The position numbers and the translations under genes were made by a program. A stretch of 64,000 nt of DNA from an uncultured Candidatus Peribacteria bacterium (GTDB lineage Bacteria > Patescibacteriota > Gracilibacteria > Peribacterales > Peribacteraceae), in the NCBI GenBank assembly GCA_964391185.1, contig CAYMIX010000004.1:48088-112087 (forward strand), read 5' to 3'. Within the stretch, counting starts at the first letter, position 1. Each line of letters begins with the position of its first letter. Positions 3,825 to 56,929 of this stretch are shown piece after piece. A model generated the notes under the pieces. The model was not told where the DNA came from and ran no database searches. It saw only the letters and a list, made by a program, of their open reading frames with translations.

Positions 3825-4592
3825 ATGCGTACCTCCCCCCTCATTATCTTAGGTTTTATCATTTTACCGTTGGCTGCCAACGCGGCCACTATTGATCGCT
3901 CCACCGTTGTGAAACCGACGCGCGGTGTGTATCAGCAATCCACTAACACGCCATTAAAATATAAAAGCCCAAAGGACTCACTTCCTGCTGTCACACAGAA
4001 GCCGTACACATCTATCAACAACCCCTATAAGTTTTCCTATCCGAGCAATTGGAAGACATATGACTTTGTGAAAAACCGCGGCGTTTCAGTATTTCCGATT
4101 GATGACAAAATGAGCGTCAGCGGCAAGCGCTTGAGTGTGATTAAATTAGGTATCATCCCGATTGCTGACAAAAAGGATTATTCGCTTGAGGAAATCGAAA
4201 CGTACTTTTTGACACACGCAACATTGTCTACAGAGACGAAGCTTGCAGACTGGTATATCCCATCATTCGGTTTCATTAGTTCTGAAGATTCAACATTGTT
4301 GGGACACACAGCGAAGAAATACATGTACACGGGTGAATGGCAGAGCAAGAAATATAAAGCTATCGAATATATAACCTCGTTCAATAAGAATTTGTATGTA
4401 GTGACATATCAGGTTGAACCAACATATTTTGATACTGATTTGCCTGTATTCGAAAGCCTTTTCAAGACTATAAAATTAAAGTCTGCAAAAGCTACAAGTG
4501 CTTCATCTACTACTAAGAGTAATGCAGTCAGGAAAACGACGGTGAAATCTTTAGCAAAATCTTCATCAACGTCTTCTGTACAATTCAAGTAA
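3825..4592 (+). CDS. Secreted protein, paralog A of tandem pair (PsbP/DcrB-like fold suspected), Ser/Thr-rich tail
   Basis: Signal peptide. VTQKPYTSINNPYKFSYPSNWKTYDFVKNRGV is shared almost verbatim with the next gene. Confidence 0.7.
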   Translation: MRTSPLIILGFIILPLAANAATIDRSTVVKPTRGVYQQSTNTPLKYKSPKDSLPAVTQKPYTSINNPYKFSYPSNWKTYDFVKNRGVSVFPIDDKMSVSGKRLSVIKLGIIPIADKKDYSLEEIETYFLTHATLSTETKLADWYIPSFGFISSEDSTLLGHTAKKYMYTGEWQSKKYKAIEYITSFNKNLYVVTYQVEPTYFDTDLPVFESLFKTIKLKSAKATSASSTTKSNAVRKTTVKSLAKSSSTSSVQFK

Positions 4593-5901: not shown

Positions 5902-5991
5902 AGGTTGACCATACTCTCCATCAGAGGCACAAGGAAATGAGCATGGGCGAGGGTCGACAGAGGCTTGAAAATGGCTATAGTACGTGCACTT

Positions 5992-6067
5992 GGGTCGGTA
6001 GCTCAGCTGGTAGAGCAGTGCCCTTTTAAGGCATTGGCCGCGGGTTCGAATCCCGCCCGACCCACCA
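5992..6067 (+). tRNA. tRNA-Lys (anticodon UUU), CCA encoded
   Basis: Cloverleaf read by eye: gggtcgg/ccgaccc acceptor, anticodon loop cTTTTaa, T-arm gcggg-ttcgaat-cccgc. Confidence 0.9.
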
Positions 6068-6383
6068 TGACACCCTTTTTCAAGGGGTCATTTCCATGTT
6101 TTCCGCTTTCCGATGGGATCACATCGGTTCGACCCACTGGAATTGCTCCGGTAATAGCCATCGGATCGAATCGGAAGAACACCTTTGCGCGACGTTCCTG
6201 CTCGTTATCGGTGACTTCGATGCGATCCACAAGGACATCAACGACTCTCTGTTTATCGGAATAACTGAGCCTCCGAACTTTCTTGAACTGCTTCGCGAAC
6301 ACGCGGACCTGATCCTTTGCGATCTGATACTGACCGAGCTGTGTGATTCTTCCTTCGAGCTCAGTCTTTTGCGCAACGCCCTC
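6056..6383 (-). pseudogene. Remnant of large serine recombinase C-terminus (coiled-coil/terminal segment only)
   Basis: Own minus-strand translation: EGVAQKTELEGRITQLGQYQIAKDQVRVFAKQFKKVRRLSYSDKQRVVDVLVDRIEVTDNEQERRAKVFFRFDP... This parallels the C-terminus of the 55259..56929 recombinase (QKKIMCQLLIERVEMSRRKVHGRWKTHGQVVFHFN). The frame reads into the tRNA 3' end, and the catalytic domain is missing. Confidence 0.55.
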
Positions 6384-6389
6384 CTACAC

Positions 6390-6878
6390 ATGCTCCTCGG
6401 TATTATCTCCGATACCCACGAACATATTGAGAATATTGAGAAGGCAAAACGTCTCTTTGCCTCAAAGGGAGTGTCTCCCATTATTCACCTAGGAGATTAT
6501 TGTGCTGGACCCTCTGTTCGTGCATTCGCTGGTGCAAAGATCATCGGTATTCTCGGGAACAACGATGGCGATCACCTGCGTCTCGAACAGAACTTCAAGC
6601 AAATAGGAGGAGATTTCCGATGGGAATTCTGTGTGCTGGAGTTCGATGGCCTCAAGATTGCCTGTTACCACGGTACTGTCCCTGAAATCACAGAGGCCCT
6701 CATCAGGTGCAAGAAGTACGATGTCGTGCTGTCCGGGCACACGCACGAATCTTCTCTCGATACGAGAGACGGGGTACTCGCATTGAATCCGGGGAGTGCG
6801 CATGGTTTCGAGAGGGCAGCAACAGTTGCGATCCTTGATACAAAAACAAAACAGGCAGAGATCATCACGTTGTCATAG
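6390..6878 (+). CDS. YfcE/MJ0936-family metallophosphoesterase
   Basis: Start moved to ATG 6390. Motifs GIISDTHEH, HLGDY, GNNDGD, SGHTHES. Confidence 0.85.
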   Translation: MLLGIISDTHEHIENIEKAKRLFASKGVSPIIHLGDYCAGPSVRAFAGAKIIGILGNNDGDHLRLEQNFKQIGGDFRWEFCVLEFDGLKIACYHGTVPEITEALIRCKKYDVVLSGHTHESSLDTRDGVLALNPGSAHGFERAATVAILDTKTKQAEIITLS

Positions 6879-6892
6879 TAGAATAGGATTCG

Positions 6893-7507
6893 ATGAGCAC
6901 CGATCCCACACAACAATTCTACGAATCTCATGTTCGTGAATACGAAGAGCAGACTCTCAATTTGCTGCCCCAGAGCTTTCTTCAAAAGTTCATGGAGACC
7001 CTGCCACGCAATTGCAGAATTCTCGATGTGGGATGCGCCTTCGGCCGGGATTCGGCAGTACTTGCCGAACATGGCTTCAGAGTGACTGGAGTTGATTATG
7101 CTGCGGCTTTGATTGAACGGGCAAAGCAGCGAGTTCTGAACGTCGAGTTCCTTGTTGCTGATATGCGTGAGCTTCCATTCCATTCCGGATCCTTCGATGG
7201 CATCTGGGCGTACATGAGCCTTCTCCATCTGCAAAAGAGTGAAGTCCCTGCGGTTCTTCAAGAATTCGCTCATGTTCTTGCCCCGAAGGGCCTCCTAGCG
7301 CTCGGCATGAAGGTAGGACAAGGAGAAGGATATATCAGCGATCAACGGTACGGCGGGGCGCAGAAATACTTCGCGAACTTCGAGGTGGATGAAATGCACG
7401 AACTCCTGCAACGGGCAGGATTCGAGGTACTGGAGAGTGCTGTGCGGGAGCGCCAACTCCCGTATCAGGATCTTCCTGTGATGGAGATCCTGTCTCGAAG
7501 GGGCTGA
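6893..7507 (+). CDS. Class I SAM-dependent methyltransferase
   Basis: Motif I ILDVGCAFGRDS, acidic post-I VTGVDY. Confidence 0.85.
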   Translation: MSTDPTQQFYESHVREYEEQTLNLLPQSFLQKFMETLPRNCRILDVGCAFGRDSAVLAEHGFRVTGVDYAAALIERAKQRVLNVEFLVADMRELPFHSGSFDGIWAYMSLLHLQKSEVPAVLQEFAHVLAPKGLLALGMKVGQGEGYISDQRYGGAQKYFANFEVDEMHELLQRAGFEVLESAVRERQLPYQDLPVMEILSRRG

Positions 7508-7607
7508 TCTGCCTCACACTCGTGAACCGGGGCATGTTATTCTGCCGCACGGCAAGGGGGGTAACGAACATCCAGAGAAAATGGACCTTCTCCTCCCGAC
7601 CCACCAC

Positions 7608-7635
7608 TGGACAAGGTAATATGAATTGATATAAT
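7608..7635 (+). promoter_or_regulatory. Sigma70-like promoter (tggaca - 16 nt - TGaTATAAT extended -10)
   Basis: Read directly upstream of ORF 7645. Confidence 0.45.
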
Positions 7636-7644
7636 AAATTTCTT

Positions 7645-7893
7645 ATGACGGAATGGCAAGATGACAGAGACGGCCTATTGGTAGACAACATCATGGCTAC
7701 TCTTCGCGAGGGCAAGGAAGTCAGACTGGCATATCAAAATAGTGATCCGAATACTGTGAATGAAGTTAAAGAAGCTCTGGGGGATTTGTATCGGAGTACA
7801 TACGGTGAAGATATTCAGATTACTTCAATGGTCAGAGATATCAGTGGCGATCTGCATGTTGTTTTTCAGTGTAAAAGAGAAGAGAACGAATAA
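7645..7893 (+). CDS. Small hypothetical protein
   Basis: ORF with a plausible promoter upstream and a REP hairpin downstream. Confidence 0.5.
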   Translation: MTEWQDDRDGLLVDNIMATLREGKEVRLAYQNSDPNTVNEVKEALGDLYRSTYGEDIQITSMVRDISGDLHVVFQCKREENE

Positions 7894-7910
7894 TTGAGGA
7901 TCGATCCTAT

Positions 7911-7941
7911 TGTCACCCTTCGACTACGCTCAGGGTGACAC
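7911..7941 (-). repeat. REP-like hairpin, CCCT/AGGG variant (tgtcaccct-tcgactacgctc-agggtgaca)
   Basis: Perfect 9-bp inverted repeat; member of the GTGTCA-stem-GAGC..CGAA-stem family. Confidence 0.7.
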
Positions 7942-7949
7942 TGTAAGGT

Positions 7950-8720
7950 ATGCCTATGATCGACTCTCACTGCCACCTCGCGGACACACAATTCTCTGAA
8001 GACCTTTCTGATGTTCTCAAGCGTGCGAAGGCTGCAGGTATCCACACCATGGTAACGATTGCCGATTCGATTCCTGAAGCAGAAGATTGTGTGAAGCTCG
8101 CAGGGAAACATAAGAATATTTTCTGCACAGTTGGCGTACATCCGCACAATGCAAAAGAGTGGAAAAGAGGGGATAGCGACCTACTGAAAGACATGGTCAG
8201 TGGTTCCAAGAAAGTCCGTGCGATCGGAGAGATTGGGTTGGATTACCACTATGATCATTCACCACGCGATACGCAGCGCGGAGTGTTCCTCGAACAGCTC
8301 ACACTCTCACGTGAATTAGGATTACCTGCAGTCGTACATTCCAGAGAGGCGATCAAGGATGTGGAGACGATCATCCGTGAAGTAGAGCCTCTGCAAGTGG
8401 TTATCCATTGCTGCACGGAGAAATGGGACGATGTCGCGTGGCTCGTAGAGCTCGGGCATTTCCTTTCGTTCACGGGCATCGCGACGTATGCGAAATCGAA
8501 AGATATTCATGAGACAATCAAAAACTGTCCTCTCGAACAAATGATGATCGAAACGGATAGCCCGTACCTCGCACCAGAACCACATCGTGGAAAAAGAAAT
8601 GAACCAGCGTATGTGGTAGAAGTCGCAAAACACGTCGCGAAGCTCAAAGATGTTTCCGTGGAAGAAGTAGAGAAGGCTACAACAAAGAATGCGATGGAGT
8701 TTTTTGGCTTACCCAACTAA
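7950..8720 (+). CDS. tatD: TatD-family metal-dependent hydrolase/DNase
   Basis: [31 protein letters not shown]. Confidence 0.9.
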
Positions 8721-50947: not shown

Positions 50948-51173
50948 TAATGGTGGTGGGCGACTGCCGAGTAGATACTTACTGTTCCATATTCCTATAG
51001 TCCTAGAGAAAAAGATACATTTCGTGGATAACGGGCAGTTCAGGAAGGGCTATGAGAAAGTGGTGGTGAGGGAATTGGATGTGAGGTCGGACCAATGGAA
51101 GAACTCGGATGCAGAGGTATTAGCGCGATAGAGGAGATAGCAATATAAGCACGGAAGCCTATAATTGCATGTA

Positions 51174-54483: not shown

Positions 54484-54552
54484 TCGAACTCAAGCATTGT
54501 TGTGCAGAGTTGCACGTATTTCATTTCTAGTACGTGCTGTACAATGTTCCTT

Positions 54553-55014
54553 ATGCCAACAGGTAGAAACTCGAAGTACAGCACGCAGATACAAGCTGCG
54601 CTCTGTAAATGGCTCAAAAAGGGTTGTAGCTACAAAGATGCATGCGCCATGGAGGGAATCAGCTACGAAACCTTCCGCACGTGGGAGAAGGAGAAATCTG
54701 CGTTTTCTGTGGCCTTAAAAAAAGCGGAGGCCGAATGTAAGGCTGCACGTATTGCAACGATCCTCAAAGCCTCAGAGAAGAGCTGGCAGGCGGCCGCGTG
54801 GTGGCTAGAGAGGCGGTGCCCTGATGAGTATGGGCGCATGGTAAAGGAAGAGAAGCCAACAAACATCGTAACGATTGAAGAATTTGAAGAGGCGGCTCGT
54901 CAACAGGATGCAATGCGGTGCAAGACGATAGAGGAGGCACGAGCACGAAAATTGGAGAGAGAAGACAGGAGTGCTGTGATAAACTGTTCGTACATCATTC
55001 AACTTTCCTATTGA
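54553..55014 (+). CDS. Phage-type HTH DNA-binding protein (terminase-small-subunit-like / possible directionality factor)
   Basis: ..GCSYKDACAMEGISYETFRTWEKE.. HTH and WQAAAWWLERRCPDEYGR signature. Confidence 0.5.
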   Translation: MPTGRNSKYSTQIQAALCKWLKKGCSYKDACAMEGISYETFRTWEKEKSAFSVALKKAEAECKAARIATILKASEKSWQAAAWWLERRCPDEYGRMVKEEKPTNIVTIEEFEEAARQQDAMRCKTIEEARARKLEREDRSAVINCSYIIQLSY

Positions 55015-55258: not shown

Positions 55259-56929
55259 ATGTCGGGTCTCGCACATAATGGAGAGAAGAGGCGTTTAGCG
55301 ATCTATATACGTGTTTCTACGCAGGAACAGAAGATGGATGGATATGGATTGGAAGCACAGGAAAAGCGTCTGACTGACTATGTAGAGAAGAATGAGGGTC
55401 TAGGGTTACAAACCAAGAAACAATGGCTCTACACGGACGTACATACGGGCAGTGACCTTAGCCGTGATGGACTCAATCGCTTACGAGAAGACGTGCGTGC
55501 TGGGAAGTACGATGCTGTGCTTGTGTGGAAGATTGACCGCCTTTCACGCAGCCTCAAGCACCTTCTCACGATCTTTGAAGAGTTTCAGAAGCATGATGTG
55601 AGCTTTATCTCCATTCAGGAGAACATTGATTTTCGTGGACCTATAGGAAACCTCATTTTTCAGATATTCGGTGCAATCGCACAGTTCGAGCGCGAACTTA
55701 TCAAAGGCCGCACACAGATGGGACGTATTGCCTCTGCGGAAATGGGGAACTTTACGGGTACGAACATTCCCTACGGGTACAACAAAGTGCCGAACGAACG
55801 AGGTAAGGGCAGCAAGCTTGTTCTCATCCCAGCAGAGAAGAAATGGGTCGAACAAATCTACAAATGGTACATCTATGAAGATATGGGTGATGGACAAATA
55901 GCAACGAGGCTCAATGAACTCAAAGTGCAGAAAACCAATCACAAGCGTACGAGCAGAGCGAGTATGGAATGGACGCACATCATGGTGCGTACCATCGTCA
56001 CAAACCCTCTCTATCGGGGCGAGTTCGTTGCCAATAGAACCGATGAAATGAATACGATTCTTCCTGAAGATCAGTGGACCCTCGTAGCCATTCCAGCATG
56101 TGTTTCAGAGTTCACCTTTCTGCAAGCGCAGGAAGCGCGCAAACAGCGTGTAAGCAATATTGCTGGTACAGAGTACCTTCTGAGCGGAAAGCTGGTGGAT
56201 ATGGACCTAGAAAGGCCTAAGCGATTCGTGGGAGCTAAGCGGTACAAGGGAGGGTTCAGCTATCGCCGCAAACAATTCGACAAAGGCGGTAAGCACTATC
56301 CCGTGTTCGAGATCGCAGGGCAGCAGATGGAAGATTTTGTGTGGGATAAGATTGTTGAGGCTTTGAATGACCCTCAAGCATTCATCAAGCACTACCTGAG
56401 CCGTGAACATGCAGACCCAAGCCGCATTGATATGTTGCAGCAGCAACTTTCAACGCTGCGTGAACGCAAAATGAATAATGATCTCGCTATTGCTCGAATC
56501 GAGAATGCATACGAAGAGGGCAGGTACTCACAAGAAAAGATGGAAGAGAAGGTAGTTGAGCGAAACAAGGAAAATGTGGAGATCGAAATGAAGGTGCAGG
56601 AAACAGAGGATCAACTCGCCATTATCAGTAGCCATGAAATCCAAATCGAAAAGCTCGAAGAAATTTCAAAGCAGACGAAAGAAAACCTCAAAAACTATGA
56701 TAGGAGGCAGAAGAAAATCATGTGCCAGCTACTTATTGAGCGCGTCGAAATGAGCAGGCGCAAGGTTCACGGACGCTGGAAAACCCACGGACAGGTGGTC
56801 TTCCATTTCAACCTCAACAAGTTTGAGAGGGAGGTAGATATGGGTAGAACCGTGAAAAAGCTTGTGCAAAACGTAAAGTCGAGATCAAGACCGAAAATTG
56901 ATGTAGATGGTGGGCGACGGCAGACTTGA
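55259..56929 (+). CDS. Large serine recombinase (resolvase/invertase catalytic domain + recombinase domain + coiled coil)
   Basis: LAIYIRVSTQEQ (catalytic Ser), VWKIDRLSRS, FGAIAQFERELI. The last 7 codons and TGA lie inside the tRNA-Ile gene (antisense). Confidence 0.9.
   Translation: MSGLAHNGEKRRLAIYIRVSTQEQKMDGYGLEAQEKRLTDYVEKNEGLGLQTKKQWLYTDVHTGSDLSRDGLNRLREDVRAGKYDAVLVWKIDRLSRSLKHLLTIFEEFQKHDVSFISIQENIDFRGPIGNLIFQIFGAIAQFERELIKGRTQMGRIASAEMGNFTGTNIPYGYNKVPNERGKGSKLVLIPAEKKWVEQIYKWYIYEDMGDGQIATRLNELKVQKTNHKRTSRASMEWTHIMVRTIVTNPLYRGEFVANRTDEMNTILPEDQWTLVAIPACVSEFTFLQAQEARKQRVSNIAGTEYLLSGKLVDMDLERPKRFVGAKRYKGGFSYRRKQFDKGGKHYPVFEIAGQQMEDFVWDKIVEALNDPQAFIKHYLSREHADPSRIDMLQQQLSTLRERKMNNDLAIARIENAYEEGRYSQEKMEEKVVERNKENVEIEMKVQETEDQLAIISSHEIQIEKLEEISKQTKENLKNYDRRQKKIMCQLLIERVEMSRRKVHGRWKTHGQVVFHFNLNKFEREVDMGRTVKKLVQNVKSRSRPKIDVDGGRRQT

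Follow-up and report, generated by a model that had tools for sequence, protein, structure and literature searches.

The 1.5-kb stretch that follows a lysine transfer RNA (tRNA) gene in the genome of an uncultured Candidatus Peribacteria bacterium is very probably the dead remnant of an island that a large serine recombinase (LSR) had inserted at the end of this tRNA, with two imported genes lying between the separated ends of the LSR gene; we put the probability of this reading at about 0.85. The stretch belongs to the window that we analyzed, i.e., 64,000 nucleotides (nt) of contig CAYMIX010000004.1 (assembly GCA_964391185.1, positions 48,088 to 112,087), and coordinates refer to the window unless another locus is named. 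An initial annotation, made from the letters of the window, had seen here a decayed element with a 12-nt repeat, a recombinase fragment, and two genes, and the coordinates that it stated all proved correct.

Repeat and recombinase remnant at tRNA-Lys

The integration target is a tRNA-Lys(TTT) gene, identified by ARAGORN at 5992-6067 on the plus strand and preceded by a promoter-like site detected in a promoter scan (5954-5981, +). Its last 12 nt, CCCGACCCACCA, which comprise the last T-stem base, the acceptor 3' strand, the discriminator, and CCA, form the core of the left attachment site (attL, 6056-6067, +), and an exact copy at 7595-7606 (+), a displaced tRNA-Lys 3' end, forms the core of the right one (attR) at the island's right edge. 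As the initial annotation had argued, the recurrence is hardly due to chance: on both strands of the window, and with one mismatch tolerated, the 12-mer occurs at these two places only, for a chance expectation of 0.14 matches, and none of 100 dinucleotide shuffles contained two copies. Over ~230 kb around tRNA-Lys in 17 relatives, a second exact copy was found at a single locus, that of G010, where it is a piece of a 34-nt partial tRNA-Lys repeat, and sequence bias is therefore no explanation for the repeat in the window.

The 34-nt copy in G010 corresponds to the 3' part of tRNA-Lys, lies ~170 nt downstream of the gene (L025 4711-4786 and 4954-4987), and resembles a scar or an island that has been deleted almost in full. 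Another minimal tRNA-end repeat was seen in G051, where the last 14 nt of tRNA-Gly(GCC) recur 79 nt downstream (L100 2543-2553 and 2622-2632). Comparison of the distal core in the window with a CCCTC-type tRNA-Lys variant gave a 15-nt match, whose three extra bases may be due to chance and which we did not use. Directly 3' of tRNA-Lys, a hairpin followed by a U-rich tract (6067-6091, +; RNA fold, -11.5 kcal/mol, z -3.0) was not called by a simple terminator scan and is probably the tRNA-Lys terminator, which the DNA of the element would have supplied.

On the opposite strand, and reading into the tRNA, lies the C-terminal remnant of an LSR gene (6003-6383, -). Its frame is open over 126 codons, from a TAG at 6384-6386 to the stop at 6003-6005; the 105 codons outside the tRNA (6069-6383) encode the coiled-coil region and the conserved C-terminal block, after which the frame runs on through tRNA-Lys. 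A phmmer search of 1.8 billion representative proteins with the remnant returned 18 matches, the best of which (P0001) had an E value of 1.3e-16 and 48% identity. The full-length protein P0012 (580 amino acids [aa]) is matched at residues 459-540, and P0016, in which the start of the Resolvase domain is missing, at residues 335-414; both carry PF00239 (Resolvase) and PF07508 (Recombinase). Eight of the 18 matched proteins are fragments of 64-128 residues. The C-terminal residues of P0001 are almost the same as those of the remnant, namely, the reverse-strand translation of tRNA-Lys, and P0006, P0009, and P0011, whose sequences we read by eye, end in tRNA-Lys read in other frames. In the alignment, the coiled-coil region is followed by a conserved block of roughly the form Y..K..L.D.LVERIEV, then FRFDP, and then IP.GRT. 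The remnant scores an E value of 8.6e-36 against the C-terminal profile, of which it is itself a member. A search of PDB sequences with this profile matched, in its first half, designed coiled coils only (E 0.17-0.4), noise that fits the coiled-coil arm of LSRs without proving it.

These results bear out the proposals of the initial annotation that the frame of ~105 codons abutting tRNA-Lys is a recombinase C terminus, with significant similarity (E 1e-16) to proteins that include full-length LSRs, and that its catalytic domain is gone. The 126-codon frame indeed contains no Pfam domain, both PF00239, which holds the serine nucleophile, and PF07508 being absent. Given the missing Resolvase domain, the TAG upstream, and the start of a phosphodiesterase gene at 6390, the locus is a gene fragment and not a recombinase. 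The part of the LSR upstream of codon ~450 is lost at a deletion junction at 6379-6389, which is also the left edge of a module common to other genomes, homology starting at 6379 for L080, a groundwater Peregrinibacteria metagenome-assembled genome of a distant genus, and at 6389 for G063.

The annotation had further considered the remnant a sibling of the intact element that stands at tRNA-Ile in the same window (LSR at 55259-56929). This view held only in a broad sense. A BLASTP alignment of the two proteins is weak but colinear and covers residues 448-531 of 556, at 21% identity and with an E value of 0.003. The remnant is closest to LSRs found at Lys-TTT, Val, and His tRNAs (35-50% identity), and Ile-clade proteins reach ~21-27%. 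Judged by these identities, it belongs to the same wider family but is a member of the Lys/Val/His clade and not a recent duplicate of the tRNA-Ile recombinase. No other copy of its C-terminal region was found in the source genome (1.48 Mb, 31 contigs).

Far-end piece of the recombinase gene

When the two sides of the core are joined as they would be in an excised circle, the frame of the remnant continues for 90 codons, on the minus strand from 7594 down to 7337. Frame reconstruction and comparison with L080 and G079 delimit in this region a far-end piece of the split recombinase gene, made of ~40 conserved codons (7488-7607, -). Between the source genome (G000) and L080, all six substitutions in continuation codons 5 to 32 are synonymous. 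In G079, a copy of the tail with 46% identity over 37 residues occupies the same place, ~440 nt upstream of the TatD gene, and is unlinked to the two genes of our stretch; since its minus frame is open and every plus frame contains stops, the strand of the tail is settled as minus. The apparent spacer before the distal 12-mer is thus best read as the displaced last piece of the LSR gene and as part of the backbone of the element, and it shows signs of purifying selection. Because the tail stands in the frame of the remnant across the core, the LSR gene would have been split by the insertion, with both of its ends kept around the cargo. The initial annotation had correctly described the two genes of the interval and had missed this third component.

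Cargo genes and module boundary

The first of these genes encodes a YfcE-family (Metallophos_2) phosphodiesterase (6390-6878, +; PF12850, E 2e-30; TIGR00040, above cut-off), and the second encodes a class I S-adenosylmethionine (SAM)-dependent methyltransferase (6893-7507, +; PF13649, E 6e-24), in agreement with the YfcE-type phosphoesterase and SAM methyltransferase named previously. Both have a patchy distribution: of 61 genera sampled, 8 have close homologs of the phosphodiesterase, the methyltransferase was found in 2 of 91 genomes of the family (E <= 1e-20), and neither gene was detected in the seven other species of the genus. The phosphodiesterase shares 86-90% amino acid identity with the copies of other genera. 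In G063, the identities reach 86-88% for the phosphodiesterase and 75-76% for the methyltransferase, compared to 40-63% for most other shared genes of the locus, one of which reaches 77%; in L080, the values are 90% and 86%, compared to 56% for TatD. We conclude that the pair represents imported cargo, a status that the earlier annotation had proposed to examine by phyletic pattern and by composition. The pattern supports it, the genes being both patchy and far more similar across genera than housekeeping genes, while composition gave no signal.

The L080 locus also defines the right boundary of the module. Its DNA is 86% identical to positions 6379-7607 of the window, a match that takes in the two genes as well as the 87 nt following the methyltransferase, and the homology stops at 7607, with the end of the distal 12-mer. 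As in the window, the module follows tRNA-Lys and has a second core copy at its boundary, which means that the 12-mer is kept in a relative that carries the same genes, as the annotation's interpretation of the repeat predicts. The L080 core is embedded in a 55-nt imperfect direct repeat (3972-4026 and 6206-6260 of that locus), consisting of the 12 nt of the tRNA end and a 43-nt flank that contains a hairpin, and where the window has the recombinase fragment, L080 has two HAD-type genes. The G063 copy is rearranged: its tRNA-Lys is inverted, the pair stands 5' of this tRNA, and the distal end is lost.

The recombinase family and its tRNA targets

The C-terminal profile matches 29 of 200 genomes of the same bacterial family, and open LSR frames of 556-632 aa were found at 20 loci in 18 of the family's genomes, the intact LSR of the window included. 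At 24 of 30 loci that we fetched, the open LSR frame, intact or fragmentary, runs convergently into a tRNA gene, ending 7-61 nt within the 3' end of the latter. Of the six exceptions, five are located at contig ends; among the 25 loci open to judgment, 24 end inside a tRNA. The targets are His, Lys-TTT, Lys-CTT, Val-TAC, Val-GAC, Ile-GAT, Ile-TAT, Arg-CCG, Arg-CCT, Tyr, Met, and Leu-TAG tRNAs, corresponding to eight amino acids, and P0012 adjoins tRNA-His in three metagenome contigs. A family of elements that target tRNA acceptor ends, which the initial annotation had deduced from the two islands of the window, is thus documented across genomes. Intact relatives have cores that end at or near CCA and recur 6-19 kb away, two of which, of 12 nt in G169 and 20 nt in G190, reach significance by themselves. 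The two other LSRs of the source genome, both on contig 2, are of a different type, unrelated to this family, and located away from tRNAs. In the library of papers that was searched, none connects Peregrinibacteria with serine recombinases.

Short C-terminal LSR fragments also stand at the tRNAs of G074 (Arg), G094 (Tyr), G168 (Arg-CCT), and probably G146 (Val), and this recurrence indicates that decay to exactly the state seen at tRNA-Lys is common. It is plausible that such fragments persist because deletions cannot reach into the essential tRNA or its terminator. The fragment of G074 is 216 aa long and abuts tRNA-Arg(CCG) (L041 10587-11237). About 2.9 kb away in the same genome (L041 13355-13475), the tRNA-Lys-like sequence CCTGACCCACCA is followed by a weak minus-strand match (E 0.008) to the tail of the Ile clade, a site that may be an orphan far end.

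The intact tRNA-Ile island of the window has the same geometry as the tRNA-Lys island. Its 11-nt core, TGGTGGGCGAC in plus-strand letters, occurs at 50954 and 56908 (+), and its LSR (55259-56929) retains a Resolvase domain (E 3e-38). In the Ile clade, the reconstructed LSR frames measure 608 and 611 codons, and the far-end tails of ~55 residues are 74% identical between the source genome and G169. The genes of this island encode a kinase-like protein, a SEC-C protein, a small-terminase-like helix-turn-helix (HTH) protein, and one LSR, none of which is present in the decayed tRNA-Lys island. The HTH gene (54502-55014) precedes the LSR, and a similar terminase-like N terminus is fused to a recombinase C-terminal fragment in P0006; together, these two arrangements suggest that the terminase-like/recombinase pair is a backbone module, which hints at phage-satellite behavior.

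Origin and present state of the island

We propose the following scenario for the 1.5-kb stretch. In the live element, attP would have lain inside the 3' part of the element's own LSR gene. Recombination with the acceptor end of tRNA-Lys at the core CCCGACCCACCA, presumably catalyzed by this LSR, would have rebuilt the tRNA and left most of the LSR gene reading into it from the opposite strand, while carrying the last ~40 or more LSR codons, along with one core copy, to the island's far end. A later deletion then removed the catalytic, Recombinase, and zinc-ribbon parts, together with any other backbone genes, leaving 105 penultimate codons next to the tRNA, the two cargo genes, the LSR tail piece, and the distal core. 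On this account, both gene pieces would derive from one element.

Lacking a catalytic domain, the island should now be unable to move on its own. Both cores and their adjoining arms are present, but the genome holds no cognate LSR, the only recombinase of the family left in it being that of the Ile clade. Contigs of four wastewater or aquatic metagenomes, from four studies, bridge both junctions without difference, and no convincing empty site was found in these four metagenomes. One candidate, a joint from 6068 to 8403 in run X5, was rejected: one side of it measures 34 nt, its depth is 16 compared to ~4, and it probably comes from the tRNA-Lys of another organism. At the tRNA-Lys loci of 15 relatives, we found none of the phosphodiesterase, methyltransferase, 82-aa gene (described below), remnant, or left-flank genes, and each locus has genes of its own. 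The presence of different genes between tRNA-Lys and TatD in every relative examined marks this interval as a hotspot of gene gain and loss in the family.

Several observations weigh against the proposed scenario. The pairwise match of the remnant to the intact LSR of the window is weak (E 0.003). There is no empty site for comparison, the flank of tRNA-Lys differs in every relative examined, and the orientation of tRNA-Lys relative to TatD varies among relatives. The intact tRNA-Lys LSR island of G051 has no repeat of 11 nt or more within 12 kb, and tblastn with the tail found nothing within 12 kb there either. The 55-nt repeat of L080 is long for a serine recombinase, of which that locus bears no trace, and the phosphodiesterase of G063 and G055 lies on the 5' side of tRNA-Lys. 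As regards the tail, an open plus frame has the same third positions, and the synonymous pattern alone therefore cannot assign the strand; a single divergent copy, that of G079, separates the minus frame from the plus frame. No long protein with the tail joined to an LSR body was found in a database of 5.8 billion clusters, which is weak evidence either way. Finally, the GC content of the island (51.5%) is close to that of the genome (48.8 +/- 4.7%), with 17% of windows as high, and its GC content at third codon positions (GC3) is similar to that of core genes; such a lack of signal is expected if the donors of the cargo are related bacteria.

Among other explanations, we considered a composite origin, in which the remnant on one side and the block of cargo, tail, and core on the other would be the outer ends of two successive tRNA-Lys-specific elements, a later deletion having removed what lay between them, including an internal core. 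In L080, indeed, the same right-hand block is accompanied on the tRNA side by unrelated HAD-type genes instead of a recombinase, the tail of G079 comes without this cargo, and both stacked islands and recombinase-less units exist among the ssrA islands of Dehalococcoides (PMC3146451). Only two cores are present in the window, however, and the gene pieces are in frame with each other across the core, a fit that any two elements of the same clade would also show; as one element and one deletion are simpler, we regard two elements as distinctly unlikely.

It is much less probable still that the phosphodiesterase and methyltransferase are old neighbors of tRNA-Lys that most lineages have lost, with a foreign contribution limited to the 0.3-kb LSR fragment and an unrelated distal 12-mer. 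The phosphodiesterase gene does adjoin tRNA-Lys in six genomes from different genera (G000, G063, G055, G074, L080, and L084), and in G074 and L084 its identity (71-75%) exceeds that of TatD (~61%) only moderately. Yet the 86-90% identity to the L080 and G063 copies compares with 56% or less for housekeeping genes, the pair is missing from all seven sister species, the nucleotide homology crosses noncoding DNA and stops exactly at the core, and a conserved tail, in the frame of the LSR, is encoded before the core. As to a mere coincidence, with a 12-mer recurring by chance next to a spurious antisense frame, the 12-mer is admittedly short and C-rich, and the match to the recombinase of the window has an E value of only 0.003; the likelihood is nonetheless negligible, this explanation being refuted by the shuffles, none of which gave two copies, by the phmmer score of 1e-16 against 1.8e9 proteins, and by the same core bounding the module in L080.

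The splitting of the LSR gene on insertion could serve as a switch of direction built into this family. The circle would encode a full-length LSR with the conserved tail, competent for integration, and the inserted copy would give rise to a variant of different activity, ending in a meaningless tRNA-derived stretch; the displaced tail would be selected at the far end, and decayed islands that keep both arms would be movable in trans by a cognate LSR. Taken together, these propositions strike us as rather unlikely.

Relation to known systems

LSR islands at the ends of RNA genes are already a known kind, and the closest precedent is that of the Dehalococcoides ssrA islands. There, a CcrB-like serine recombinase, DsiB, is associated with a 20-bp direct repeat of the 3' end of the RNA gene (McMurdie et al. 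2011, PMC3146451). In every case, the 3' end of the recombinase gene overlaps attL and its stop is found only beyond the island, the authors suggested that the gene may be complete on the circle alone, and tandem as well as recombinase-less islands occur (PMC3146451). The islands described here likewise result from LSR insertion at the 3' end of a small stable RNA, with a short repeat (12 bp at tRNA-Lys). They differ in their targets, which are tRNA genes of at least eight amino acids and not transfer-messenger RNA, and in their host, which belongs to the Peregrinibacteria within the candidate phyla radiation (CPR). Neither the integration module of six genes nor the additional small serine recombinase (DsiA) of Dehalococcoides is present here, even in the intact sibling island, and the displaced tail here shows signs of purifying selection. 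This conservation bears on a question left open by the Dehalococcoides work, namely, whether the tail matters.

Comparable exchanges of gene ends are known elsewhere. In streptococcal integrative and conjugative elements (ICEs) with a single serine integrase acting at rumA, the target gene holds one direct repeat and the integrase gene itself holds the other (PMC4701971). As in our system, insertion swaps 3' ends and alters the C terminus of the integrase; unlike here, a protein-coding target is altered, by large conjugative elements whose repeats measure 2-21 bp. In phage Mx8, the end of a tyrosine integrase gene changes upon insertion into a tRNA gene. Classical tRNA-gene islands (Islander) resemble those described here in their use of the tRNA 3' end, the regeneration of the tRNA, and the displaced 3' fragment at the far end, and differ in their unrelated recombinase family, that of tyrosine integrases (PMC4383910). 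According to a large survey, tyrosine integrases differ from serine integrases in their longer att cores and their preference for RNA genes (PMC13626063). Among Prochlorococcus tycheposons and cryptic elements, 27 of 937 have an LSR instead of a tyrosine recombinase, and some carry terS-type packaging genes (bioRxiv 10.1101/2020.12.28.424599). The small-terminase-like gene of the tRNA-Ile island recalls the latter, whereas the serine recombinase, an exception among tycheposons, is the rule here. Finally, islands that keep att sites without a recombinase are known as cis-mobilizable elements (PMC3146451), and the tRNA-Lys island would resemble them in that it keeps both att cores and their adjoining arms but has no working recombinase.

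The remnant itself is inert and ordinary. Its interest lies in explaining the presence, in a streamlined Peregrinibacteria genome, of a phosphodiesterase-methyltransferase pair missing from sister species, which would have arrived on a tRNA-Lys-specific island. It also provides a documented case of a serine-recombinase island at a tRNA end, a niche usually credited to tyrosine integrases, to which the present work adds a conserved tail of the split gene and the transfer of cargo between genera. Serine integrases that recognize short conserved tRNA ends could be of interest to builders of genome-insertion tools.

Flanking features

To the right of the island, and outside it, a strong sigma-70-like promoter (7608-7635, +; 11 of 12 consensus matches and a TG extension) would serve an orphan 82-aa gene (7645-7893, +), situated between the island and TatD, and the TatD gene itself (7950-8720, +). 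The 82-aa gene has no family match and gave one weak match only in 120 genomes of the family. Just upstream of TatD, a motif of ~30 nt (7911-7940), similar to repetitive extragenic palindromes (REP-like), recurs with 94-100% identity at many unrelated places in the genomes of relatives. Among relatives, tRNA-Lys flips relative to a conserved TatD - tRNA-Arg - tRNA-Gly block. In the close species G004 (L017 7962-8037) and G003 (L018 7936-8011), only the 76-nt tRNA, 100% identical between them, is inverted, and one of the two has extra DNA on both sides. In sister species, the interval between tRNA-Lys and TatD (G004, L017 8102-8542; G002, L019 8782-9102) contains small minus-strand open reading frames with similar C-terminal ends, which, read by eye only, look like excisionase-type HTH proteins.

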